A stretch of DNA of 64,000 bases from a phage: the sequence record NC_135731.1. One strand, written 5' to 3'. The notes under the pieces are model-generated. The model saw only the letters and a list, made by a program, of their open reading frames with translations. It was not told the origin of the DNA and searched no databases. Of this stretch, positions 37,422 through 50,524 are shown in pieces. A program made the position numbers and the translations under genes. Numbering within the stretch: the first letter of the stretch is position 1; the number at the start of each line of letters is the position of its first letter.

Positions 37422-40400
37422 TTAGTCGTGAGACTCGTTCCAAGGTCCCTGGAAGCTTGAGTTAGAACGACTAACGATCACAGTGGGACAGGAGATTGTG
37501 ACACTTGTCACGTTTGACGTTGACCACGGGGTGTAGATTTCAATAATAATGTCTATAGTTTGTTCACCTAGACCTGTTATCCCAATTGCACACATGCCAT
37601 CGTTGTCGTTTCCGTACTTCTTGCCAGCAAGGAGTTGATGACCAGCTATCCACGCATTTAGTTGGGAGTTGGCACGAGTACCTTTCAGTTTAAAGAAGAA
37701 TGTTACGTTCTTACCTTGACCTGAAACGTTATCTACGTATCTCCACCTCCAACGGCAAACCCTCTGCTGGGAGTTATGCACTGGAGCACAATCTCCGTAA
37801 GTCCTGTGTGCAACAATTGCACCTTCGAACTGGTTAGCACGGATAACAGAAGCTTCTACACGACCACGGAATGTACCTCCGGTTGCATCTATGGTACCTC
37901 TAAAGCTACCATTATTGGCATAAACATCTCCACGGAAGGTACCACTAGTGGCATTAACTGCCCCTGTGAAGTTACCAGAACTGGCGTTGATGTTGCCTTT
38001 CACCCACACATCCATAAATTGGGCATGCCCGTTCTTGTTAATATACCAACCGTATTTATGGTACCCGTTGCCATCGTAGTTGTTTGACGAAATTTCTTGT
38101 GCGATCTTGGCAGAGGAGATCGTGCCATTCTCTATAAAAGCGTCTTTCAAGAACGCTTGGTTGTTCTTGATTGCGAAAGCAAGGGTTGCTGTTCCATTTC
38201 CGGGGTTATATACCGCAAAGTTGTTTGCACTAACCATGAAGTATGATTGAACTTGTCCTCCAGACCCCTCCATGCCCAGCTGGATACCTGCCACATATTT
38301 ATTACCATGGCTGTCAACCTGAATCTTAGCTCCCCACTGAGCATCTATTTTACCCTCAAGTGTTGTTACAGCTTTAGAGGTATTAGATACTGTAGCCCTG
38401 AGCTCATCAATATTACCCATTTCGTCAACAATTTCTTGTTTTGCAGAGGTAAGTTCTTGACGGATCGCTGTGGCTGTATTATTAACAAGATCAACTGTTG
38501 TACTATTAGTTTCTTGAATAGATGCTTGCAGATTGGCAACCTCTTTCTGCACATCATCTTCCAGCTTGGTGATCTTCCCTGTAGCTGCCACCAGATCCTG
38601 CTTAATAGCTTCCGTTGTCTTATTTAGCAGATCGGTTGTTGCCTTGTTGGTTTCTTGAATAGAGGAGTTAAGTTTGCTCTCAGTGTTCTTCAACTCTTCC
38701 CGCAGAGTACCTTGAGTTGCAGTTATTTGCTCACTCAATGCTTGAGTTTTACGATTAACGAGATCAACGGTTGATCTATTTGTTGTCTCGATTAGTGACC
38801 CAAGCCTACCAGACTCTGCTGCAAGTTTATCGTCAAAGGATTGCTGAGCTGCTACCAGCTTACTGTTAAGGGCAGAAATTTCTCCATTAACCCCTGTAAA
38901 TTTTTCTGTCGTCTCTCTGACAACACCCTCTATTGTATCCCCAAGCTCTTCAAAAATGCTAGTAACACGGTCATTGACTGCACCAACATTTTTATCCATT
39001 TCCTTGACTGCATTATCAAGATTGGCGGTAAGCTCTTTATAAGTCTCTGTCTTTTTGAACTCAGCATCAATCTGTGGCATAAGATCTTCTATGGATGTGT
39101 AACAGCGGGCTGCACACTCCACAAAAGCAGATGAACCAAAAGCATTTGTTGTCCTGATATACCAGTAATAAATCTTATCGTTCTGCAGACCTTCAGATGT
39201 CCAAGTTGAACCAACACCCATACGAGTGGCTTTTGAAGTAACTGTTACATCACTGGTATCTGGCAATCTTGTCATCCCAGATGTCCAAAAGTCGTACTGG
39301 GTGCTTACACTAGCCAAGTCTCTGCTGTGCGGGATCAGGGTAATAGCAAAGTATCCCTGTTTAACCTCCACAGAAACAGGAGCTTCAGGTGCCTGAATGT
39401 TGAACTCACAATATGCTTCCGGAGATACGCCACCTTTATAAGATGTTGCAACCACGGTTGCTGTGTATGACCCCTTGGTCAAGCCTTCTACTCTGACAAA
39501 CTGCTCAACTGTTTGTGCTGTCCAAACAATCTCTCCGTTCTTTCTTACCTGCACAATATTTTGAGCGTAGGTCCCAACGTTGTCCCAAGCCAAAACACCG
39601 TGAGTTACTTCTCCAGCTTGGAGAACGGAATATCTGAAGTTTTGCGGTTGAGCTATACCAGATGGAGATATTGGAATATCTACATCACCAGAATCCGGAA
39701 GTTGACCCGTGGCATCATTCCACTCTTTAGCATCTTGACGAAGTTTTACCTTGACGCCACCCTTTTTGGTAAACTCCCATTCAAGAACTCTCATTTCTTG
39801 GCCCACTATACCAATACTTGGGAGGTCCATCGTAACGTAACGACCAGGTTTAAATTTGAAACCTCGCATATTGCAGGTGACTTCAATAATCCTACCAGCT
39901 CTGGCACGTCTTAGGAAGATTGCAGAAACACGCTGAGCTTGATAAGGACTGGTAACAAAACGATAGTCTATATCGATTATCTTTCTTTCTCCATCCTTCT
40001 CTATCCACTCTGGGACAAACACTGATGGAAAATCTGTTTCAGAATATCCTTTGGTCGGACTAGTGAATCTGCCAGTTATTGTGTTGGATCTTTTGTCAAA
40101 TGAGGCTTCCGGATAGATCTTTACCTCACCACAGACACAATCCTCACTCAGTGTCATTGTTGCCGGGCCATAGTATGCACCAACCAGCAAACCATACTTA
40201 CCAGCTACATAGCTGAGATCTGCGCCACAAGCTTTCAGCATTTCTGCCATAATACTTGCTGGTGCCTCATCCATATCGAACTCGCCATTAATTGTGTAAC
40301 GGCGCTCACTGGTTCCGTCTGCGTTTTTTACCTCCTCGTCACATATGTTGGCAGCCTCCTTGAAGGACTCCCAGTTGATGGTTTCGTCAGGACATTTAAG

Positions 40401-41021
40401 GTATGTTCTTAAATAGTCCAGAATCACTAAGGCCGCGTTATTGGTATACACCTCTTTACTGATGCGAGGGTCATAGCATTTTTTACCAACCTTGACCAGT
40501 GTAACGTTTGGCAACCCAAAAGGAAACTTATTAGGGTCAAACTTGAAGCTGGCACGCAGCCAACTGATCCCTCTACCTATCATATCTGGTGACCACGATG
40601 GGCAGTGTGTACCCATGAAAGGATCAGATGTTTTTCTGTCGTTATGTAGCTCCCACGATACCAGATCTCCATACGAGGAAATAGGATTACCGTCGATGAG
40701 TATGTCTTCTATACCTTCCAGAGGATGATTAGCAAGAACAATGGCACAATGGAGGGTTCTGTCTCTGTCCTGCTCCAAAAACGCAAGCAGCCCAGACGTG
40801 CGTGTCTTTCCATACACTACAGAGCAGGGTGCAGCAGAAGATCTGAGAAGCTTTTGTCTATCTTGCTGACTTCTGTAAGATTTGTTGCCCTCAAAAATCT
40901 TATCCAGAGTTCTGGTGGTAACAGTGTTCAGGCTGTCAGCCAGAGCTGCCTTGGATGCGTTCCAGTCATAGCTTGAAGATCTTGCAGAAGCAACGATGTT
41001 ATCAATCATTGCAATTGGCAT
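37422..41021 (-). CDS. lambda gpJ-like protein (tip attachment / host specificity family, with fibronectin III-like region)
   Basis: Several segments track recalled lambda gpJ: GYFAITLIPH vs GYFQITATPH; YYWYIRTTNAFGSSAFVE vs YYFYIRSVNTVGKSAFVE; NKYVAGIQLGMEGSGG...NNFAVYNPGNGTAT vs KHYVAGIGLSMEDTEEG...NRIAFIDPANGNET; N-terminal WESFKEAANICDE resembles the gpJ hub region. Confidence 0.75.
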   Translation of the reverse strand: MPIAMIDNIVASARSSSYDWNASKAALADSLNTVTTRTLDKIFEGNKSYRSQQDRQKLLRSSAAPCSVVYGKTRTSGLLAFLEQDRDRTLHCAIVLANHPLEGIEDILIDGNPISSYGDLVSWELHNDRKTSDPFMGTHCPSWSPDMIGRGISWLRASFKFDPNKFPFGLPNVTLVKVGKKCYDPRISKEVYTNNAALVILDYLRTYLKCPDETINWESFKEAANICDEEVKNADGTSERRYTINGEFDMDEAPASIMAEMLKACGADLSYVAGKYGLLVGAYYGPATMTLSEDCVCGEVKIYPEASFDKRSNTITGRFTSPTKGYSETDFPSVFVPEWIEKDGERKIIDIDYRFVTSPYQAQRVSAIFLRRARAGRIIEVTCNMRGFKFKPGRYVTMDLPSIGIVGQEMRVLEWEFTKKGGVKVKLRQDAKEWNDATGQLPDSGDVDIPISPSGIAQPQNFRYSVLQAGEVTHGVLAWDNVGTYAQNIVQVRKNGEIVWTAQTVEQFVRVEGLTKGSYTATVVATSYKGGVSPEAYCEFNIQAPEAPVSVEVKQGYFAITLIPHSRDLASVSTQYDFWTSGMTRLPDTSDVTVTSKATRMGVGSTWTSEGLQNDKIYYWYIRTTNAFGSSAFVECAARCYTSIEDLMPQIDAEFKKTETYKELTANLDNAVKEMDKNVGAVNDRVTSIFEELGDTIEGVVRETTEKFTGVNGEISALNSKLVAAQQSFDDKLAAESGRLGSLIETTNRSTVDLVNRKTQALSEQITATQGTLREELKNTESKLNSSIQETNKATTDLLNKTTEAIKQDLVAATGKITKLEDDVQKEVANLQASIQETNSTTVDLVNNTATAIRQELTSAKQEIVDEMGNIDELRATVSNTSKAVTTLEGKIDAQWGAKIQVDSHGNKYVAGIQLGMEGSGGQVQSYFMVSANNFAVYNPGNGTATLAFAIKNNQAFLKDAFIENGTISSAKIAQEISSNNYDGNGYHKYGWYINKNGHAQFMDVWVKGNINASSGNFTGAVNATSGTFRGDVYANNGSFRGTIDATGGTFRGRVEASVIRANQFEGAIVAHRTYGDCAPVHNSQQRVCRWRWRYVDNVSGQGKNVTFFFKLKGTRANSQLNAWIAGHQLLAGKKYGNDNDGMCAIGITGLGEQTIDIIIEIYTPWSTSNVTSVTISCPTVIVSRSNSSFQGPWNESHD

Positions 41022-41458
41022 TAATACCTCCAGACATCAACAACGATAGAATCTTTCATGTCGAACATAAAGACCCCTTTATCACCTTTCGCCCAAATCT
41101 GGTTGTTCCAGAACACACCAGCGGTGAGCCCGTTCAGACCCTCGAAGATAACAATATCGCCACGCTGAACCTGTTTAGGAGTATCTAGTCGAGTCATAAA
41201 GAGATCAAAAATAGTAGGTAGGTGTGTGGTTTTGAAACGGAGCATGCACCATCTTTTGCTTTCCAACTCTGTTTTATACGTTCCTTCGAAGTTAGAAAGA
41301 AAATCTGTTCCGTATTGGGCATCAACACACTTGGCTGCAAAGGTGCAACAATCGTGGAATCCCCATTCAAAAGGTATGGTGGCCTCTTCGTCAAACACTT
41401 TCCACAATCTTTCTTGCCAATCTACTAAACGAGGATGTGTGCTCATTAAACCTCCCAA
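41021..41458 (-). CDS. putative tail-tip assembly protein (145 aa)
   Basis: One of three short genes directly upstream of the gpJ-like gene, a position occupied in lambda by tip-assembly genes; contains a Cys motif FHDCCTF; assignment is positional only. Confidence 0.3.
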   Translation of the reverse strand: MGGLMSTHPRLVDWQERLWKVFDEEATIPFEWGFHDCCTFAAKCVDAQYGTDFLSNFEGTYKTELESKRWCMLRFKTTHLPTIFDLFMTRLDTPKQVQRGDIVIFEGLNGLTAGVFWNNQIWAKGDKGVFMFDMKDSIVVDVWRY

Positions 41459-42012
41459 ATGATCGGGCGGCTCGCCACCTGATCCACATATTTAAAAAAT
41501 CTGTCATTATCGTTTCTTGAGCTGTGGCTTTCCTCCGTGTACCGATAAGGAAAACCTCTTAACCAACTGTTGAAGATGGAAGAGATGGATATGGACAAAG
41601 CACTATTCTCACCTGTCTGAATAGCCATATCTGTTATAAGTCCGTCAAACAAGCCATTGGTTGTAACAGGCAGACCATTCTCCATAGCGGTAATGTACAA
41701 CGTGGCACGACAACCAGAATACTCCGTCTTCAGTAGATCACCAACATACTTAGGATCAAACCCGTTCAATGTTGCTACCACAGATCCGAAGTTGGTGGCA
41801 TCTTTCTCAGACACAGCAGTTAATGTTGCTGATCCACCTATCCCTATAAAATGTTGCCCCTCAATTACTACAACACCAGTGCCTGAGCACACCCTGACAG
41901 TCCCTGTCGGTAGCTCTAGCTTTGCAGCAATTAAGATCTCAACACCATCAAGCTCCAGCTTCTCAAGAAATAAATTATCTAATGGCGCTCTGATCATCTT
42001 AGAAATCCTCAA
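41446..42012 (-). CDS. putative minor tail protein (188 aa)
   Basis: Positional call, second gene upstream of the gpJ-like gene; no direct motif match. Confidence 0.3.
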   Translation of the reverse strand: MRISKMIRAPLDNLFLEKLELDGVEILIAAKLELPTGTVRVCSGTGVVVIEGQHFIGIGGSATLTAVSEKDATNFGSVVATLNGFDPKYVGDLLKTEYSGCRATLYITAMENGLPVTTNGLFDGLITDMAIQTGENSALSISISSIFNSWLRGFPYRYTEESHSSRNDNDRFFKYVDQVASRPIIWEV

Positions 42013-42589
42013 AGAAGGTGATAACTATATTATCACCTTTTTGCATAGCATCGACTTTTTGCTTAATTTTATAAATATCTCTGATATGAAACCTACCCTT
42101 TGGGGATTGAGTTATTATCTTCATAGTATCCCCTGCGGCAATAGGTTTTCTAAGTCTTGGAGATATGCTTATAACAGCAGACCCAACACCATCGCTGCGC
42201 ACTGGAGCTGTTACCACTTTCAACTCATCATTGACAGATATTTTATCCCCAGCTCTGGCTATGTCTCTGTTTGGCTCCCACCCAACCGTCTTCAAAAAAT
42301 CGTCGTTACCGGTAGGCCCAAGGGCGATTGGCTCATTAGCTGTAACTGAGTGACCGTAAGTTTTAATAAGAAAGATGTTTCCATCTTTATACACCTGATC
42401 AACAAAACTCTTAAGTTCCAGCAGCTGAGACTCGCTGATATTTGAAACCGTCAGAGTGCCTTTCCAGTTAGGTGTGGCATAGGTTACTTTTTGCGTTTTA
42501 CCTGTAAACGGACTTTTAAACGTAACAATATCTGCCAGCAGCTCCAATCTAATATCTGGAAGATATCTAGGCCTTTCCCATAAAAACAT
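41999..42589 (-). CDS. putative minor tail protein (196 aa)
   Basis: First gene after a promoter/terminator pair; GGAGG RBS; positional call only. Confidence 0.3.
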   Translation of the reverse strand: MFLWERPRYLPDIRLELLADIVTFKSPFTGKTQKVTYATPNWKGTLTVSNISESQLLELKSFVDQVYKDGNIFLIKTYGHSVTANEPIALGPTGNDDFLKTVGWEPNRDIARAGDKISVNDELKVVTAPVRSDGVGSAVISISPRLRKPIAAGDTMKIITQSPKGRFHIRDIYKIKQKVDAMQKGDNIVITFFEDF

Positions 42590-42650: not shown

Positions 42651-42681
42651 ACAAACAAAAAGCCCCCGCCGAAGCGAGGGC
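42651..42681 (-). terminator. rho-independent terminator after the long fibre gene
   Basis: Hairpin CCCTCGC-TTCG-GCGGGGG followed by CTTTTTGTTTGT on the minus strand, 8 nt after the stop at 42689. Confidence 0.65.
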
Positions 42682-42688
42682 AAAACAG

Positions 42689-45600
42689 TTACTTCAGTTT
42701 CTCTTGCAACCCAGCAACAACCTCTGTCAATTTTTTAACCTGCTCCTCAAGGGCGGTTATTTTATCGTCCTGTTCCCTGCAAACCTGGACAAGCAAGCCT
42801 GTTACAGCTGCGTAATCCACGCTGTAGAATCTTTCCTCTGTTATTAAAGGAGTTCCATCCTGATCAGGGTTTGGGATTTCCTTTCTTTGCACGAAAGAGC
42901 TAACTGCTTCCGGCAGCGCTTCAAGCACTTCTTGTGCTATAACACCTGCATAAGGCATACCGTTCTCTTTAAGAGTGTAAGTATAACCCTTCATCTTCCG
43001 GATAGCTTCTAACGCATCAGGAATAACAGATATGTTATCTTTCAGGTCTCTGTCAGAACTCTGATTGACAGATGTGCAATTCACAGCACCGTTTACAGAA
43101 AGATATCTTGATTTATCCGGCAAGGTACCGCAATGCCATACCCAATTTGCTTGAGACTCGTCACGAACCTTAAACTCTAACACGTTTGGACGATCCCCTG
43201 TGCTGCCGTTACCCCAATAATGGAGTACAGCATCATCCTTGGGTAAGCCATCTGCGTTGGAGGGAAGACCATTAGCACCGATATGAATTTCCAGTTGATT
43301 ACTGGTTTCACCAAAAATGTGATTAGGTCTTAACTGAATGCCCTTACCAGCATCGTGTCTCCATTCTTCCCAAGTAAAGACATCGCCAACGTAGTTACCA
43401 GCACGAGTATATCTGTCACCAAAATAGGTGATATATTCCTGCACACAACCTTGAGGTCTGTTAGCTGTGTTTTTGTAAACAAGCAGTGTACCAGCGTACG
43501 GAGCAGGGTAGTGGCGATCTGTTACAAGTGCGTCAGCGTTTGAACCCTGGTGATAGAAACCTTCACGGCTACCATCGTAGTCATTAAGGTCTTCTGTCCC
43601 TAGACCTTGACCACGGTGCTGAATAACTTTGTTCCACGCCCTGTGGTTTCCCTGCTCTATGGAACGAGTGTACAACTGGTCTAAACGACCTGCCATCTGG
43701 AAAGCGTAGTTTCCAGAAAATGCCACAGACAGTCCGCCAACAACCATTGAACCTTCAGGTCCGTTGACGTTGCCAGCCAGTATTTTGGATGGGTTGTTAG
43801 GCCCAAACTGGTTGTTCCAGTCTGCACCCGTATGACATACAAAACCACCTGGTGCCGAGAAAGTACCATCTTTGTTGAAATTGTAGAATCTGTGAGCAGA
43901 ACCTACAACATCACGAACAATAACTTGACCAGCCTCTGGAGTAGATCTGAACTCTGCCTGACCTTTGAGACCAGCACCATTACCGCATTTGGAGGTAAAC
44001 GTACCGTTAGTCAGATCCTCTGTCCCATCTGATGCACACTGGAAGCCTGCATTAGAGAATAACGCCTTTCTAGGACTGCCGTAGCACAAATAGTCAAGAC
44101 CGTCGGCGCATAGCTCGACTTTTGGCATATTCATTTTGCTCATCACAGCATAGCGTTCAGCAGTGCCTATATAGTGCCACTGTGTGCCGCCACCAGTGTA
44201 GAACCCTGAAGTCCCTTTGAAGTCAACAATAGGTCTGGTGTTGGTATTATTATCTCCAAGAACAGCAAGATTCAAATCTGCTGACTGGAGAGGTGCAACG
44301 AACTTAACACCGTCCTGATTGTCTGTTACAGAGCCAACCTGGTAATCTTGCTCCCTGGTAAACACCTCGACAACATTTCTACTTGCGTATATGCTGACAG
44401 GGAAAGCACGCGCCTCTGCATAGAAAGCAACATATTCTTGTTTACCCCTTGTTGGAGCAACCATCCCAAGAAGTGCTTTTTCATTCTGGTAGAAATTTAC
44501 TACCCCGTAGAAAGAGTCTCCTCTGTCTGTCCAACCACCAGTTCTATAGTGACACTGCAGAGTCGCACAGTTCATAGGGTCACTGCCGGATGACGATCTG
44601 GTAACTATGGTAATATCAGTGCCAGTTGCTGGAGCATAGTACGGATCTGTTCTGACGATAATTGGGTAGTATTTCCCATCTTCCATCCCTGCGGTTCTTG
44701 GCAGTGTTAAGAAGTCTTTTACACCTGCTGCTATAGGAACTTTGAACAGATTCTGAGCATCTGCTAAAGTTGTGGCCCCAGTACCACCTGCGGCGTGAGG
44801 TAAAGGTTCCCACTTGGCCTTCCGGTTGTTATAAACACCCCATTCCAGAGTGCCGTTACCGGATTCATCCATCCCGCCATCCCAGATGACCATCTTGGCG
44901 GCTTTCTTGGATCCCCAGAAGCCTCTTTCTGCTCCTGAACTGCGGATCCACTCTCCAAGTCCCCAGTTTGTCAGCTGACCAGTAAGATCCCCAACCTGCA
45001 TGTATTTAGGACAATCTAAGACCCCATCCTCACGGAATCCTAAATATCTATGAGTTTCAGATCCTTTTGCGCCTTTGTGCAGGTGGATTGTCAACCAAGC
45101 TTTGTTATCGTTCCTTACCTCAGAGTAAATCCTATACCCATGCTCAAGGACACCATCAGCGCTGTATTTGTCTCCGTTAACAATACCTGATGCTGACTTA
45201 ACATCAGCAGAACTTTGAGACAGGTAAAGGTGACCGAAGGTAGGGGAGTTTCTAGACCCGAGACCGATGTGCGCTCTAAAGGTCTCATCGTTACGAGGTC
45301 TGACCATCGGCTGCCATGCAGTCCACTGATTTGTGTCGGCCTGATAGGTTCTCAAATACCAAACATCTACGTTAGAGAATGGATAGTATTCCTGACGACA
45401 ACCTGTACCGCCGTTAGCATTGTTCTGCCAAACAATCAAGTGACCAGCACCAGAACCTGCAGGGTATCCATTTGCCTCAGTTGCATAAGCAGTCATTGGC
45501 TGGTAGTATACACCATCCTGATTACCAGTCAAGTTATTGATATTGAAATTTGGCTCAAGGGCTGCACGTTGCTTATAGAAAGCACCGATATTGATACGGA

Positions 45601-46495
45601 TTCCAGCGGCATCTCTAGCCCCTGTGCCGCCCTGCTCTATAGCAAGAGGCTGCCAAGAAGCTGTTTGTTGGTTCCACATACCCCAACGGCCTGTTGCATC
45701 AAGCTGCAAGTACCCTGCCGTGTTTAAATCATCTCCAGCACGGATAACTGTTCTTGTTGGATTATTTGCCTCTAGGCGTTTAAATTCATCACGAAGTGCT
45801 ATTCTTTTTGTTGTTGCTACACCGTTGGTTACTGCGATGGTATACATTGCTCCGGAGGTAGCTCCACGGAAAATACCATCAACAGTTGTAGTATCACGAC
45901 GAGATACCACACCGTTCAGAAATTTTTCACCAGCTGCTACAGAAGGATAGTTGGTGGTTCTTCCCTCTTCAATAACTGCAGGGCCAACAAAGTTATCAAG
46001 GTGGATAACATCGCCTACAGTGTGCACTGTACCAAAATCTACACGCTGTGCAAGTGCTTTAGCATCGTTAGCTGTCTGAACAGTAACATCCATTACATCC
46101 TGGACAGACTGACCTTCAGCTGTCATAATCATGGATGCGCCAATGGTAGATTCCAGCTCCTCTCTCAATGATGGATCTGTATATACCATCCATGCAGCGT
46201 CAGTAATCCCACCATCGGAGTACGGTGAAGACAATGCAGGAACAGTGTGCGGAAATTCGCCTTTCCAACGCAGGTAGAGGTCTTCCTCTTCGAAGTAGGC
46301 AAAATCCATTGGGCCGTTTAACTTACCACCTTCCTTAAAGGAGATTACATGAGAAACAGTCCCATCCACATGGACAACATCGCCAATTTTTACACGACGG
46401 GTCAGGTCTGGTTGTTGAACAACCAGGTAATCATCCTCTGTCACTGCGGTAGTGGCAGGAAGAGATTCAATTCTGACAACTTTAATATCAGCCAT
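42689..46495 (-). CDS. long tail fibre or tailspike (1268 aa) with C-terminal intramolecular chaperone (peptidase S74-like) domain
   Basis: C-terminus SDRDLKDNISVIPDALEAIRKMKGYTYTLKENGMPYAGVIAQEVLEALPEAV followed by a coiled coil matches the auto-cleaving chaperone domain of endosialidase and T5 L-shaped fibre type proteins; N-terminal roughly 80 aa are shared with the 49130-49798 product. Confidence 0.7.
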   Translation of the reverse strand: MADIKVVRIESLPATTAVTEDDYLVVQQPDLTRRVKIGDVVHVDGTVSHVISFKEGGKLNGPMDFAYFEEEDLYLRWKGEFPHTVPALSSPYSDGGITDAAWMVYTDPSLREELESTIGASMIMTAEGQSVQDVMDVTVQTANDAKALAQRVDFGTVHTVGDVIHLDNFVGPAVIEEGRTTNYPSVAAGEKFLNGVVSRRDTTTVDGIFRGATSGAMYTIAVTNGVATTKRIALRDEFKRLEANNPTRTVIRAGDDLNTAGYLQLDATGRWGMWNQQTASWQPLAIEQGGTGARDAAGIRINIGAFYKQRAALEPNFNINNLTGNQDGVYYQPMTAYATEANGYPAGSGAGHLIVWQNNANGGTGCRQEYYPFSNVDVWYLRTYQADTNQWTAWQPMVRPRNDETFRAHIGLGSRNSPTFGHLYLSQSSADVKSASGIVNGDKYSADGVLEHGYRIYSEVRNDNKAWLTIHLHKGAKGSETHRYLGFREDGVLDCPKYMQVGDLTGQLTNWGLGEWIRSSGAERGFWGSKKAAKMVIWDGGMDESGNGTLEWGVYNNRKAKWEPLPHAAGGTGATTLADAQNLFKVPIAAGVKDFLTLPRTAGMEDGKYYPIIVRTDPYYAPATGTDITIVTRSSSGSDPMNCATLQCHYRTGGWTDRGDSFYGVVNFYQNEKALLGMVAPTRGKQEYVAFYAEARAFPVSIYASRNVVEVFTREQDYQVGSVTDNQDGVKFVAPLQSADLNLAVLGDNNTNTRPIVDFKGTSGFYTGGGTQWHYIGTAERYAVMSKMNMPKVELCADGLDYLCYGSPRKALFSNAGFQCASDGTEDLTNGTFTSKCGNGAGLKGQAEFRSTPEAGQVIVRDVVGSAHRFYNFNKDGTFSAPGGFVCHTGADWNNQFGPNNPSKILAGNVNGPEGSMVVGGLSVAFSGNYAFQMAGRLDQLYTRSIEQGNHRAWNKVIQHRGQGLGTEDLNDYDGSREGFYHQGSNADALVTDRHYPAPYAGTLLVYKNTANRPQGCVQEYITYFGDRYTRAGNYVGDVFTWEEWRHDAGKGIQLRPNHIFGETSNQLEIHIGANGLPSNADGLPKDDAVLHYWGNGSTGDRPNVLEFKVRDESQANWVWHCGTLPDKSRYLSVNGAVNCTSVNQSSDRDLKDNISVIPDALEAIRKMKGYTYTLKENGMPYAGVIAQEVLEALPEAVSSFVQRKEIPNPDQDGTPLITEERFYSVDYAAVTGLLVQVCREQDDKITALEEQVKKLTEVVAGLQEKLK

Positions 46496-46508
46496 TCTTT
46501 CTCCTGAA

Positions 46509-46526
46509 AGGGGGCAAACAGCCCCC
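46509..46526 (-). terminator. hairpin directly upstream of the fibre gene RBS (attenuator-like)
   Basis: Minus-sense GGGGGC-TGTTT-GCCCCC followed by TTTCAGGAGAAAGA and ATG at 46495; short T-tract, so probably partial termination. Confidence 0.35.
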
Positions 46527-46530
46527 TATG

Positions 46531-49128
46531 TTAAAGGTACAATCCACGGTATTGAGCATAAAGGCCCAGACCGCGAAGGATTTCGCCAGAGTGATAGCCA
46601 ACCGGATCAGAAACTGCCCAGCAGCCGTTTAAAACATTATCACCATTGATGAAGTGGTGCTTTTGCAGTAGCTTCACACAGGCCTCTACAACAATATCTA
46701 TTTGAGGTATTGTCTCTGAATACCCGCACAGACCTAGCCAGCAGCAACCTGCAAGCCATTCACCTACCACCCACATCCTGTCTCCTCTGTCCTGATAAGA
46801 ATATCCCCCCGAGGTGTTAAAGTCTGTAGGTAGATTTCCTGAATGAGATGACTGGAATCTGTTGAGGAACCATGCCCATTTCTGGCAGAACAGGAATAGT
46901 CTTTCATCAACAGGTTCTTTATGTTTCTTGAGCTCATATATTGTGCGGCACGCAGCAACAAAAGATCTTGACTGGAGCTTAGAGTTATCTACCATCTCCC
47001 ACCAACCAGTCAGCCCTTCATTACCTCTTTGCCATACATAACGTGAGGCAACTGGACCCTCTGTCTTAAATGTATTATTATACCAGACTTGAGCGTCATA
47101 CAGAAAGCCTATTGTATTTGACAATCTATGGCGATCTATGTTTTCTGCACCCATGCAGTATACTGCTGGGTATTGCATGCCTGGGTAGGGCCAATTTGGC
47201 CTTTCCTCTAAGAGATAGTTTTCCTTATCTATCACCTTTCCGGCAGGGAACACACCTGGTGTGTGCCTGTATGCACCTTGCTTGTAGTTTCTGACATAGC
47301 AATCGCCAACCTTAGCGGTTGATTCTGTCTTGCTTGCCATCCACACGCTAAACCAGATTAGATAAGCATCCCTATCTGCAATATAGAATTGCGGCAGCGT
47401 GTTGACGCAATACAGATCAAACAAGCCATTACCTATCTGCCTGTCGCTTAGGCTGAAATCTACAGAGGTGAGTCCCTTAGGATTAGCAAAGAAAGGTTTA
47501 ATCTCTTCTTCAGTGTGATGAGGTTGTGTCGGATCTAGTTTGAAATCTCCTAGAGTAAGAGTTTCTGTTATCCATTGTCCATTAGTGGCATATAGATCAG
47601 CATACCATAACCACCTGTCTTTGTCAAGAAATTTGACCCTTACCATCTCATCATCTGATCGATAAGTTACTGAGTTTAAAGAAATCTCTCTTCCAAAATT
47701 GAAAGTTACTTTGCCTCTTGCTATATTACAACGGGTGAAGTTGTCAGAGTGGTTGTAAATGTCAGTATCGTACTGCATACTAACACTGGCACCACCGCTC
47801 ACGGCAATATTTTCCTCTTTAGGTAAGAGGTACGGATTACCGTCTTTACCAACTACCTCTACGAAATCAGTAACCTTGGCAACTATTTCTGTTACCTCTG
47901 CCCCTCCAAAAGGAACCCCTATCCTGTACTGTTTTTTGTTATTGTTGCCATCATTAAGGATGAAATGTGGCTGGAACAGAACCCCTTCTCCTCCGAAATT
48001 CATAACAATTTCAGCATCTCTGCCTATTTTATATGTAGTCCCTTTTTGAATTATTTCGCAAGGCTGGCGTGCGTTCATCCTAAAATTGATATACCCGTCA
48101 CTGTCCCTACTCATGACAGGAACTGTTCCTGCAACAAGACAAGTACCATCTGTGAACGGTGCCTTAATCAACGTGGTCTTTCTAAACAACTTGTCGTAGG
48201 CGTTTATATCACTGAAATTAAGCAACTTGTTGTAAGACTGTTTAAACGCGGTGTAATACTTTTCCTCACCTGTCAAGGTGTAGAGTTGATAACAAGCGTC
48301 ACACCACATTTCTTCCCCGTCCAACTCTGGGGCCTGATTATCTGCAACCACGTTTATAGGATTTACAATTACAGGGGATCCAGCAGGTATCACCGATCCA
48401 CCCTGCTCTTGAGGTAATCTTACACAATAGGTCACCTTGTGGCTTCCTGTAACACCCTTATCTTGTAATTGGATTGTGCCGAACTCTATAGACGTATGCC
48501 CACTGTCGGCTATGCTCCCGTTAGCCCAATAGCGGTTACCATCCCATGCTATGTACCACTCAACCCACCAACTTAATCCTGATGTTGTCCAATCTGGGTT
48601 AGCATCTGTGCCACCGTAAACATCAGAGTCTACAGTGTTTCTTCCTAACACACCGTTATACGCTTGGAATGCCTTGTCCAGGTATTCCCCCCATGTCGGA
48701 GCTCCCGCTGGGATTTTTCCTCTACCGTTGGTAAAAGACACCACCACATCTTTAAACCCACCGTGTGATGGAACCCCATCTGTGGATAGAGGGTAGTGGG
48801 ACAATCTTTGCATTTTACTTTCTACGGCATATGCACCCAGAAGATGACTATTGTAAGCTTCCCAAGCATCTTTTGCCCTATCCAGATAGAAATCGCTTTT
48901 CGATGCCCTGTATGCTTCAATGTATCCCAGAATCAACACAGCTTGGGACTCATGCATTGCCCAATCGTTATTTATCTTATTACCTGCCCACCCTGCAGCT
49001 ATAAGACCATCAGGGTTTACTAGCTTATTTTGTGTAGGTGTGTTGGTAATACCTGTGTTGTTATCGAGGCACTTCCTGTGCCCCTCAATCATCTGAAATA
49101 CGTTATCAATGTTGTGTTGAATACGCAT
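46531..49128 (-). CDS. large tail-associated protein (865 aa), possibly a polysaccharide-degrading tailspike
   Basis: ATG lies 1 nt after the stop of the 222-aa anchor-like gene (TAAGATG) with GGAG upstream; aromatic-rich, enzyme-like composition; no catalytic motif confirmed. Confidence 0.4.
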   Translation of the reverse strand: MRIQHNIDNVFQMIEGHRKCLDNNTGITNTPTQNKLVNPDGLIAAGWAGNKINNDWAMHESQAVLILGYIEAYRASKSDFYLDRAKDAWEAYNSHLLGAYAVESKMQRLSHYPLSTDGVPSHGGFKDVVVSFTNGRGKIPAGAPTWGEYLDKAFQAYNGVLGRNTVDSDVYGGTDANPDWTTSGLSWWVEWYIAWDGNRYWANGSIADSGHTSIEFGTIQLQDKGVTGSHKVTYCVRLPQEQGGSVIPAGSPVIVNPINVVADNQAPELDGEEMWCDACYQLYTLTGEEKYYTAFKQSYNKLLNFSDINAYDKLFRKTTLIKAPFTDGTCLVAGTVPVMSRDSDGYINFRMNARQPCEIIQKGTTYKIGRDAEIVMNFGGEGVLFQPHFILNDGNNNKKQYRIGVPFGGAEVTEIVAKVTDFVEVVGKDGNPYLLPKEENIAVSGGASVSMQYDTDIYNHSDNFTRCNIARGKVTFNFGREISLNSVTYRSDDEMVRVKFLDKDRWLWYADLYATNGQWITETLTLGDFKLDPTQPHHTEEEIKPFFANPKGLTSVDFSLSDRQIGNGLFDLYCVNTLPQFYIADRDAYLIWFSVWMASKTESTAKVGDCYVRNYKQGAYRHTPGVFPAGKVIDKENYLLEERPNWPYPGMQYPAVYCMGAENIDRHRLSNTIGFLYDAQVWYNNTFKTEGPVASRYVWQRGNEGLTGWWEMVDNSKLQSRSFVAACRTIYELKKHKEPVDERLFLFCQKWAWFLNRFQSSHSGNLPTDFNTSGGYSYQDRGDRMWVVGEWLAGCCWLGLCGYSETIPQIDIVVEACVKLLQKHHFINGDNVLNGCWAVSDPVGYHSGEILRGLGLYAQYRGLYL

Positions 49129-49129
49129 C

Positions 49130-49798
49130 TTAGATAGCTCCTGCGATAATCAGTGCCCCGTACCAAGTTAACCCGTTGTCGTAGGTTTCCAACTTGAAAA
49201 TGTCTGTTGCACCAGCTGTAAATGTTAGGATAGGATCTCTTCCGTAGGACCATTTAACATTACCAGGCCAATAGACTTTGTTGCCGCCAGAGGTCTGAGT
49301 AATGCATACGGTTATAGTTCTCGCCACCCCTTCAAGACCTTCTGTTTGATTTTCAAAAGAGATTGTGGTATTTGAAGTTAGTCGAACCTTAAAGGTATCC
49401 GCAACTTCAAGATCCATATCAAGCTGACCACCGATAGATCCGTAATCAACTATTCTGCCAGAAGAAGTTGCAGCAAGCTCACCAAAAACAGACCAGGCGT
49501 TTGCAGACACACCCCCAGCACCCTCTACAGTGGAGTCTGGGAGGATTATTTTAGGATAATCCCCGTTCCACGTGTAGTAGCGCTTAGTTTCTGGATCATA
49601 AGCAAAGTCCTTCTTGCTCTTAAGATAACCACCCTCTGTGAAATAGACTATTTTAGTAATGCTGAGATCGTTGACAACATCATCAATCTTAGCCTTTCTT
49701 GTCCCATCAGTCTGGTTGACAACCAAGAAGTCATCACTCAGGACTGTTTCTGCATCTTCAAGATCTGGAATTGGTATTGTAGGATAAGCTACAGCCAT
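49130..49798 (-). CDS. tail protein carrying a fibre N-terminal anchor-like domain (222 aa)
   Basis: N-terminus (DDFLVVNQTDGTRKAKIDDVV ... EGGYL...DFAY) is homologous to the N-terminus of the 1268-aa fibre (DDYLVVQQPDLTRRVKIGDVV ... EGGKL...DFAY). Confidence 0.5.
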   Translation of the reverse strand: MAVAYPTIPIPDLEDAETVLSDDFLVVNQTDGTRKAKIDDVVNDLSITKIVYFTEGGYLKSKKDFAYDPETKRYYTWNGDYPKIILPDSTVEGAGGVSANAWSVFGELAATSSGRIVDYGSIGGQLDMDLEVADTFKVRLTSNTTISFENQTEGLEGVARTITVCITQTSGGNKVYWPGNVKWSYGRDPILTFTAGATDIFKLETYDNGLTWYGALIIAGAI

Positions 49799-49807
49799 GA
49801 TTTCTCC

Positions 49808-50524
49808 TTAGTTAACATCAATAGCACGACCAGACTGGTTGGCAATAGCCTCATCATTGGAGGTAGCAATAACACCAGAGTATTCGCGCTCATCTGGAGC
49901 AAGCGTCCAGGTATTGCGGTTAATGGTTTGTTCTGCCTCAGTCATCAGCAGATCTTTATCCTGAGTCAACAGAGAGCCTACAGGGATCGGGTTTTCCATC
50001 TCAGGACCAGCATACTGGTTCCACCATGTGGCATCTCCGGTTCTAGGCAATCTGAAGTTGATCAGGTAGTACAGTTTATTAGCCCACTTAATCCAACCCT
50101 CATCATCACAGAGAGAGGTTGTCCCAGAATCAGGTTGTGGGTAGGTAAACTGATCAAGACCTACGAAAGCCAGCCTTACAATCTCGTTCTCTTTGGTAAC
50201 AACCTCAAAGAACGCTTGGTATGTTCTCGATCTTCGATCCATGGTAGACTGGAAGTTTACGATGTTTAGCACATCCGGCTCTTGTCTTGCCACTTCCATA
50301 ATCTTGTTATCAAGAACAGTCTTCATGACCTTCTTACTGAGAAAGTCCATATAAGGGAAGCCAAACAACTCGTCAAAGTACCAGCTCCCCTTCCACGTAT
50401 TAAACCTCATCCACAAGCGCTGGCGCAGACTTACCTGGTTTGAATCTATCAACTCAAGACCTTTGTCTATCGCCAAATCACCTGTCTGTGGGTCCATCAA
50501 TATATCACTATAAAGCGTAGCCAT
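49808..50524 (-). CDS. putative baseplate protein (238 aa)
   Basis: Immediately downstream of the spike-like gene, where baseplate wedge genes sit in P2/Mu-type tails; positional call only. Confidence 0.35.
   Translation of the reverse strand: MATLYSDILMDPQTGDLAIDKGLELIDSNQVSLRQRLWMRFNTWKGSWYFDELFGFPYMDFLSKKVMKTVLDNKIMEVARQEPDVLNIVNFQSTMDRRSRTYQAFFEVVTKENEIVRLAFVGLDQFTYPQPDSGTTSLCDDEGWIKWANKLYYLINFRLPRTGDATWWNQYAGPEMENPIPVGSLLTQDKDLLMTEAEQTINRNTWTLAPDEREYSGVIATSNDEAIANQSGRAIDVN

Follow-up and report, generated by a model that had tools for sequence, protein, structure and literature searches.

A small protein with an exchangeable anchor as the probable adaptor of a glycosidase-like protein beside the long tail fibre of rV5-like phages

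The 64,000-nucleotide stretch of phage sequence record NC_135731.1 analysed here, which we call the window, raises a question about how a phage tail is decorated: why do a long tail fibre of 1268 residues and a small protein of 222 residues begin in the same way, and why is the small gene coupled so tightly to the gene for an enzyme-like protein of 865 residues? The three genes occupy positions 42689-49798 of a Vequintavirus; across this region, Escherichia phage phiWec196 matches the window at 100% identity, and the rV5-like phages (Vequintavirus) that match it at 90-98% number more than 100. The original prediction offered two explanations, either two appendages docking to the same virion site or an ancestral tailspike split into adaptor and catalytic subunits. 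We believe, with a probability of roughly 0.65, that the 222-residue protein is an adaptor with a swappable anchor, that it carries the 865-residue glycosidase-type protein and that it docks like the neighbouring fibre. The ideas of an adaptor plus enzyme and of a shared docking site are complementary, not alternatives.

All three open reading frames (ORFs) lie on the minus strand, with the boundaries first predicted for them. The features on which the argument depends are given here in coordinates of the window.

49130-49798, minus strand: ORF of the 222-residue putative adaptor, built of three modules; orthologue of rV5 gp43 and counterpart of phi92 gp140; match to phrog_7760 (tail fibre) with E = 8e-120; AlphaFold2 (AF2) model with a mean predicted local distance difference test (pLDDT) score of 80.6.
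49664-49798, minus strand: N-terminal anchor peptide of the 222-residue protein, residues 1-45, common to the 1268-residue fibre (BLASTP, phmmer).
49469-49663, minus strand: Tail_spike_N (PF18668) neck of the 222-residue protein, residues ~46-110, common to the 1268-residue fibre.
49133-49468, minus strand: C-terminal beta-sandwich knob of the 222-residue protein, here termed C-dom, residues ~111-222, the proposed docking platform for the 865-residue protein.
49126-49142, minus strand: junction of the 222- and 865-residue genes, with AGGAG at 49138-49142 inside the 222-residue gene, TAA at 49130-49132, one base, and ATG at 49126-49128.
46531-49128, minus strand: anchor-less, glycosidase-like (alpha/alpha)6-barrel protein of 865 residues; orthologue of rV5 gp42 and counterpart of phi92 gp141.
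47290-48141, minus strand: beta-sandwich region inserted in the 865-residue barrel, residues ~330-613; pLDDT 70-88; match to phrog_23426 at residues 482-580.
42689-46495, minus strand: ORF of the 1268-residue long fibre, orthologue of rV5 gp41; PF18668 and PF13884; phrog_6578.
46181-46495, minus strand: N-terminal module of the 1268-residue fibre, residues 1-105, common to the 222-residue protein.

The two N-termini are homologous, as had been predicted, although over about 100 residues rather than about 80. BLASTP of the 1268- against the 222-residue protein returned a single significant segment, residues 7-105 against 8-105, at 38% identity (70.9 bits, E = 4e-18), and the motifs that first drew attention are present (EDDYLVVQQPDLTRRVKIGDVV against SDDFLVVNQTDGTRKAKIDDVV and EGGKLNGPMDFAY against EGGYLKSKKDFAY). 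When either N-terminus was searched with phmmer against the ORFs of the window, the partner protein alone was retrieved (E ~1e-17), and no third copy of the module was found among all stop-to-stop ORFs of at least 50 residues in the 64 kb; it occupies exactly two places in each complete genome of Vequintavirus and of the GAP31/PVP-SE1/4MG group. The module is bipartite. Residues 1-45 form a separate anchor peptide (residues 1-50 match orthologous fibres in phmmer with E ~1e-4 to 1e-5), and two phi92 proteins, gp140 and the endosialidase spike gp143, have N-termini that match the anchor of the 1268-residue fibre as well. The neck belongs to PF18668 (Tail_spike_N, the TSP1/gp66 N-terminal domain), scoring 41.0 bits at residues 51-105 of the 222-residue protein and 40.5 bits at residues 46-103 of the fibre, with a gathering threshold of 25 bits. 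In the model of the 222-residue protein, the N-terminal fold resembles the N-terminal domains of CBA120 TSP1, TSP3 and TSP4 and of G7C gp63.1; the structures matched, in this G7C/CBA120 tailspike comparison, were 4qnl, 4oj5, 5w6f, 5w6h and 7rej. Like these structural relatives, the 222-residue protein is presumably trimeric.

An anchor common to adaptor and sibling fibre recurs in other phages. The N-termini of phi92 gp140 and of EndoN92 (gp143) gave a Smith-Waterman score of 72, which none of 5000 shuffles reached, and seven control N-termini from phi92 were all non-significant; phiEa21-4 gp71 and gp70 match at their N-termini with E = 1.4e-16; and two metagenomic phages show the same likeness (for the L003 adaptor against its gp34-like fibre, E = 3.4e-10). 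The match of the nepoznato adaptor to its endosialidase-type spike is weak (16 bits), and a sibling with the same N-terminus lies within 4 kb in 8 of 39 non-redundant IMG/VR loci. Shigella phage Sf14, a relative of phiEa21-4, provides a structural precedent: its long fibres gp52 and gp53 have near-identical N-terminal baseplate-binding motifs and were proposed to sit at the two peripheral subunits of each wedge (PMC11821841). As at the window locus, two appendages use one anchor type, but both are complete fibres, without an adaptor-plus-enzyme arrangement, whereas phiEa21-4, a related phage, has the C-dom adaptor as one of its two proteins with a common anchor. Since the 1268-residue protein has the same anchor and neck as the 222-residue adaptor, the two probably dock, by analogy with such cases, at equivalent or adjacent wedge sites at the baseplate periphery. 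Two appendages docking at the same kind of site is the best reading of the shared N-terminus.

In the 222-residue protein, this module is followed by C-dom, a beta-sandwich of ~110 residues (pLDDT ~90 in the AF2 model) for which no Pfam family was found and no PDB sequence match was obtained with a 42-sequence C-dom profile. The homologue search gave only 4 matches for the 222-residue protein and 5 for the 865-residue protein, and the diversity of homologues described here was drawn from tblastn, from IMG/VR and from a search of representatives. A small gene with a C-terminal C-dom abuts or overlaps the large gene in every lineage inspected by hand, namely the window, phi92 (gp140/gp141), EmilieFrey, nepoznato, the Rosemountvirus SE13, phiEa21-4 (gp71/gp72), the podophage ISAO8 (gp38/gp39), Vibrio D531 and two metagenomic contigs; across these lineages the last ~110 residues of the small protein are homologous, whereas the N-termini differ. 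The C-dom gene lies directly 5' of the 865-like gene, at a spacing of -20 to +13 nucleotides (nt), in 63 of the 74 IMG/VR loci that have upstream sequence. By tblastn of 50,697 phage records, C-dom was found in 525 and the 865-residue protein in 524, with a near-equal breakdown by host genus. The adaptors draw on different recognised attachment families: that of the window has PF18668 and that of ISAO8 the T7 fibre N-domain (PF03906), PF08400 and PF12571 occur among the IMG/VR loci, and other adaptors have coiled coils; lambda-type prophage and P2-type fibre N-domains are among these N-termini. In the T7-like ISAO8, the adaptor stands at the position of gp17, with the large gene placed between the adaptor gene and that for the holin. 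Our literature search found no description of such an adaptor-enzyme pair, the 2012 phi92 paper, which may hold an earlier statement, lying outside that search.

Two side observations concern the cassette itself. In the IMG/VR loci L062, L079 and L083 (two of them from ~182-kb contigs), the large homologue has ~1600 residues and the upstream C-dom ORF has only 107 and no anchor, which reflects either a start-codon artefact or an anchor-less variant. The promiscuous Atoyac podophages also have the cassette, and in them the fibre/glycosidase pair belongs to the regions that differ from isolate to isolate.

Homologues of the 865-residue protein (862-1157 residues, 26-56% identity) align with it end to end from residue 1-15 and, since even distant ones align from their first residues, none has an anchor of its own; no anchor-type Pfam domain was found in the 865-residue protein or in four scanned homologues, nor is there a paralogue within the window. 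The remaining 11 of the 74 IMG/VR loci (L041, L044-L046, L048-L051, L054, L055 and L081, on contigs of ~5-20 kb) have no C-dom gene, and in these the large protein has an in-frame N-terminal extension of ~180 residues (for example, L044:3458-6751). The five extensions that were read are near-identical, and the one that was scanned, that of L044, is Tail_P2_I/gpI (PF09684, E = 4.7e-53). In L044, the single locus examined in full, the fusion lies within a canonical gpV-gpW-gpJ-[gpI::enzyme]-gpH cluster, flanked upstream by lysozyme, gpR, gpV, gpW and gpJ and downstream by a gpH-like fibre, a fibre chaperone and the sheath; loci of this type may be tailocin-like or prophage elements with a built-in glycosidase-type wedge. 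Given that the pair is conserved, that the large protein is anchor-less, that the anchors of the small protein are swapped and that the large protein is otherwise fused to gpI, we believe that the large protein decorates the baseplate periphery but is unable to dock alone. On these sequence comparisons, the C-dom protein is best read as its adaptor.

Whether the carried protein is an enzyme is a separate matter. Its AF2 model, used for fold-class assignment only, places it in the class of six-hairpin (alpha/alpha)6 barrels. It differs from the glycoside hydrolases of that class (GH105, GH88, GH76, GH48 and GH8) in sequence, with 8-14% identity and no family model at threshold, in the interruption of its barrel by ~280 residues of beta-sandwich, and in its virion context. 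The inserted region is the best-modelled part of the protein (pLDDT 70-88) and is probably glycan-binding. A PDB sequence search with the 865-residue protein gave no match, and its ISAO8 homologue reaches 20.9 bits for GH76, below the cut-off of 25.9 bits. Across 8 diverse homologues 78 columns are invariant, including E60, D270, D277, D342, D502 and D609; in all 119 close-relative records the protein retains at least 95% identity, and the next-best records fall below 60%. Its rV5 orthologue gp42 is a virion protein, as gp41, gp42 and gp43 were all found in virions by mass spectrometry (PMC3606486). The predicted label 'enzyme-like' thus holds by fold, although no sequence family reaches threshold. 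The same division applies to the predicted pairing of adaptor and catalytic subunit: the conserved adjacency in every lineage examined and the 865-like protein never having its own anchor speak well for the adaptor role, whereas catalysis is indicated by the fold only.

In phiEa21-4, the internal beta-sandwich of gp72 (L008:5243-8716) and the distal ~170 residues of the fibre gp70 (L008:2991-4499) are 40% identical (E = 2e-36). The fibre gp70 therefore has its N-terminus in common with the adaptor gp71 and its distal end in common with the enzyme-like gp72, and by this homology both appendages of phiEa21-4 may bind the same glycan.

We propose the following model. The three genes would give rise to two appendages of an rV5-type baseplate that use one docking solution. 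The 222-residue adaptor would consist of the anchor peptide of ~45 residues, the Tail_spike_N neck and the C-dom knob of ~110 residues, and the knob would hold the anchor-less 865-residue protein, for which a conserved surface glycan is the most likely ligand and probably also the substrate. At an equivalent or adjacent site, the 1268-residue fibre would dock with the same anchor and neck. The C-dom adaptor and the enzyme-like protein would together form a mobile two-gene cassette; on entry into a new phage, the N-terminus of the adaptor would be replaced by a fitting anchor, often a copy of that of a resident fibre.

Several observations weigh against this model. No Pfam or CAZy family reaches threshold for the 865-residue protein, and its AF2 model is of low confidence overall (pLDDT 59; predicted template modelling score, pTM, 0.44), being poor outside the beta-sandwich and a few hairpins. 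Adjacency and co-occurrence could reflect co-function without contact. A mirror-tree analysis (Mantel) gave a Spearman rho of 0.36 for C-dom against the large protein and 0.21 for the anchor against the large protein, and with such weak discrimination we dropped it as evidence. Lastly, the wider C-dom family, comprising 4022 representatives at E<=1e-3, with C-dom in C-terminal position in 129 of the 150 best, includes tandem arrays and copies 5' of beta-helix/repeat regions, in chains without an 865-like partner, so that C-dom is not exclusively a dock for the 865-like enzyme.

Within that wider family, P0010-P0013 are fibre proteins of up to 2036 residues with 3-5 C-dom-like units, arranged in tandem or dispersed, and in this group the units also precede beta-helix or 'VDRIDYSNDT'-repeat regions in single chains. 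The wider family is thus a building block in general use among fibres.

The alternative that survives best is compatible with the adaptor model and concerns only what is carried, in that the 865-residue protein would be a catalytically inert glycosidase fold that serves as a glycan-binding or structural decoration of the baseplate. The lack of a CAZy-type family at threshold speaks for it, as does the failure to map catalytic residues to an active site, the invariant acidic residues listed above notwithstanding; moreover, it is in the beta-sandwich that the model is confident, the homologue of which serves as a fibre tip in phiEa21-4 gp70. We consider an inert protein unlikely, though it is the rival to be taken most seriously.

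A further alternative dispenses with the adaptor altogether. The 222-residue protein would be a complete short fibre with a receptor-binding knob, the 865-residue protein would join the baseplate alone or through another protein, and their adjacency would reflect co-regulation only, both acting on the same glycan. Such a fibre would be in keeping with the C-terminal position of C-dom in most members of its family, many of which are short fibre-like proteins, with the structurally comparable Pa223 spike, which ends in a free TNF-like knob, and with the occurrence of C-dom in the wider family without an 865-like partner. However, the C-dom subfamily considered here and the large protein accompany each other nearly one for one. 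The 865-like protein is anchor-less in phages with unrelated tails (myophages, jumbo phages and a T7-like podophage), while the anchor of the small protein tracks the phage type, and in loci that lack the small gene the large protein forms a fusion with the baseplate protein gpI. Given this pattern, we regard two independent appendages as improbable, more so than an inert passenger.

An adaptor with a separate passenger must also be set against a single chain. The stop codon of the 222-residue gene does lie 1 nt before the start of the 865-residue gene, as predicted (...GCAGGAGCTATC TAA G ATG..., read directly from the sequence), and such tight coupling, together with the fused anchor-enzyme architectures known for the large protein, would suit a tailspike that was split recently, or one fused product arising from a frameshift or from readthrough at TAA-G-ATG. 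Nevertheless, the 865-residue frame is offset by +1 relative to the 222-residue gene and has its own ATG and its own AGGAG nine bases 5' of it, each gene thus having its own Shine-Dalgarno sequence, and in the 63 loci both the spacing (-20 to +13 nt) and the relative frame vary, with no conserved slippery context. We rejected a frameshift or readthrough fusion because of this separate Shine-Dalgarno sequence and the variable spacing. Nor does the predicted ancestral split fare better. The search for fusions covered 80 IMG/VR loci and, among the C-dom representatives, the best 150; neither these 150, nor the 74 IMG/VR loci with upstream sequence, nor the ten loci inspected by hand contained a C-dom::enzyme fusion. 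The only fusions observed join the enzyme-like protein to P2 gpI, without C-dom, and the arrangement is old, given that identity between the split lineages is only 26-56%. A recent split or a fusion is therefore very improbable. Equally hard to credit is a role for the 222-residue protein as an assembly chaperone of the 865-residue protein or of the fibre instead of a stable virion adaptor since, although many tail-fibre assembly proteins are likewise encoded by small genes tightly coupled to a large tail gene, fibre chaperones are as a general rule encoded downstream of their client, proteins of the 222-residue type carry canonical virion-attachment N-domains, and rV5 gp43 was found in purified virions (PMC3606486).

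GenBank labels orthologues of the 222-residue protein, for example bas59_0024, as 'sialidase domain protein'. We rejected this identity, as there is no sialidase fold and the domain is the beta-sandwich of ~110 residues. The sialidase matches cover 25 residues only, over one Asp-box-like motif, with Foldseek E above 6, and a BNR match in one homologue has E = 0.067. The label seems to rest on the single Asp-box-like motif TYDNGLTWYG.

The partner with the same anchor, the 1268-residue protein, is a long fibre of the conventional kind, with an S74 chaperone at its C-terminus, and the block of tail genes ends with it. Two further features belong here.

42902-43057, minus strand: Peptidase_S74 (PF13884) intramolecular chaperone domain of the 1268-residue fibre, residues 1147-1198; Pfam score 51.1 bits, cut-off 22.
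42662-42681, minus strand: intrinsic-terminator-like hairpin directly 3' of the 1268-residue gene, from a consensus scan only.

In transcription order, the 222-residue gene is preceded by genes for the tape measure, tube initiator, plug, hub, spike and gp25-like sheath initiator (49808-50524); then come the 222-, 865- and 1268-residue genes, the hairpin and a lambda-like Dit/gpJ-type module. The hairpin has 8 pairs, 7 of them G-C (GCCCTCGC-TTCG-GCGGGGGC), and is followed by a T-run, so that the block from tape measure to fibre looks like one transcription unit ending there. In the BASEL comparison, the three largest fibre genes of the locus varied allelically, and the BASEL paper describes the assignment of genes to fibres in this phage group as unclear. 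In our searches, many Vequintavirus genomes match the three-gene region 42689-49798 in two pieces that cover 93% of it, which indicates that part of the region is divergent in those genomes. By size and position, gp41, the 1268-residue fibre, fits one of the allelically variable genes and may be one of them.

Two observations on the surroundings stand apart from the argument. Directly downstream of the fibre genes, at 37422-42589 on the minus strand, lies a siphophage-like tail-tip set in a myophage, with a Dit-like protein of 196 residues (phrog_1302), a 188-residue tail protein, a DUF6950 protein of 145 residues and a gpJ-like protein of 1199 residues with Phage_Tail_Tip and Ig_J domains. 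Moreover, ~18-23 records of 'Campylobacter phage' with Campylobacter jejuni as host (MG065646, MG065647, MG065661 and others) are 96-97% identical to E. coli rV5-like phages across the locus; this looks like mislabelling or contamination.

A close known counterpart is phi92 (Justusliebigvirus). It has the same gene order, with the sheath initiator, a C-dom protein of 157 residues and an overlapping homologue of 958 residues (E ~1e-169), and an anchor common to gp140 and the S74-chaperone spike EndoN92 (gp143); it differs in that gp140 has no Tail_spike_N neck. In the 2026 cryo-electron microscopy (cryo-EM) study of phi92, gp140 was a fibre candidate that did not fit, gp141 was not mentioned, and fibre II, described as a short and thick fibre fixed to the base of fibre I, was left unassigned; in the RBPseg cryo-EM of Bas49 and Bas54, only three fibres were fitted. 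As a hypothesis, the description of fibre II is compatible with a gp140-gp141 complex next to gp143. A non-fibrous passenger would account for the failure of searches for fibre-shaped candidates, and we suggest gp140 and gp141 as candidates for the unassigned density. Tentatively, and with more doubt than conviction, the reading can be widened: C-dom and the (alpha/alpha)6 protein might be a glycan-processing cassette independent of morphotype, which spread among myophages, podophages, jumbo phages and P2-like elements through the adaptor N-terminus only, often copying the anchor of a resident fibre so that the new appendage sits beside it; gp140-gp141 would then be fibre II of phi92, and C-dom a new and widespread class of docking knob. 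Both rV5-like and phi92-like phages are candidates for therapy with a broad host range. An adaptor with a non-fibrous glycosidase-type protein, docked beside a variable fibre by means of a common anchor, is a specific and testable assignment that narrows the problem of the unassigned fibres, and the anchor-swap rule would represent a natural design for moving an enzyme module between phages of different tail types.

Adaptors that carry other receptor-binding proteins are not new. In the branched tailspike complexes of G7C, gp66 carries gp63.1, and in those of CBA120, TSP4 and TSP2 carry TSP1 and TSP3. As proposed for the window, an anchored protein with a docking domain carries a second receptor-binding protein that has no baseplate anchor of its own, and the necks of the 222- and 1268-residue proteins are of the same Pfam family (PF18668) and fold. 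Similarly, in the podophages K1-5, K1E and SP6 a gp37-type adaptor carries the tailspikes. There, a small adaptor with a T7 gp17-type N-domain fixes anchor-less enzymes, which is exactly the layout of ISAO8 gp38/gp39; in contrast, the docking domain and the passenger enzymes are unrelated to those described here, and the window-type cassette crosses tail morphotypes by exchange of its anchor. The gp37-type adaptor is mentioned in PMC13450770. What sets the system of the window apart from these branched and adaptor systems is a minimal adaptor with an uncharacterised docking candidate, a non-fibrous (alpha/alpha)6 passenger, and the mobility of the cassette across morphotypes by anchor exchange.

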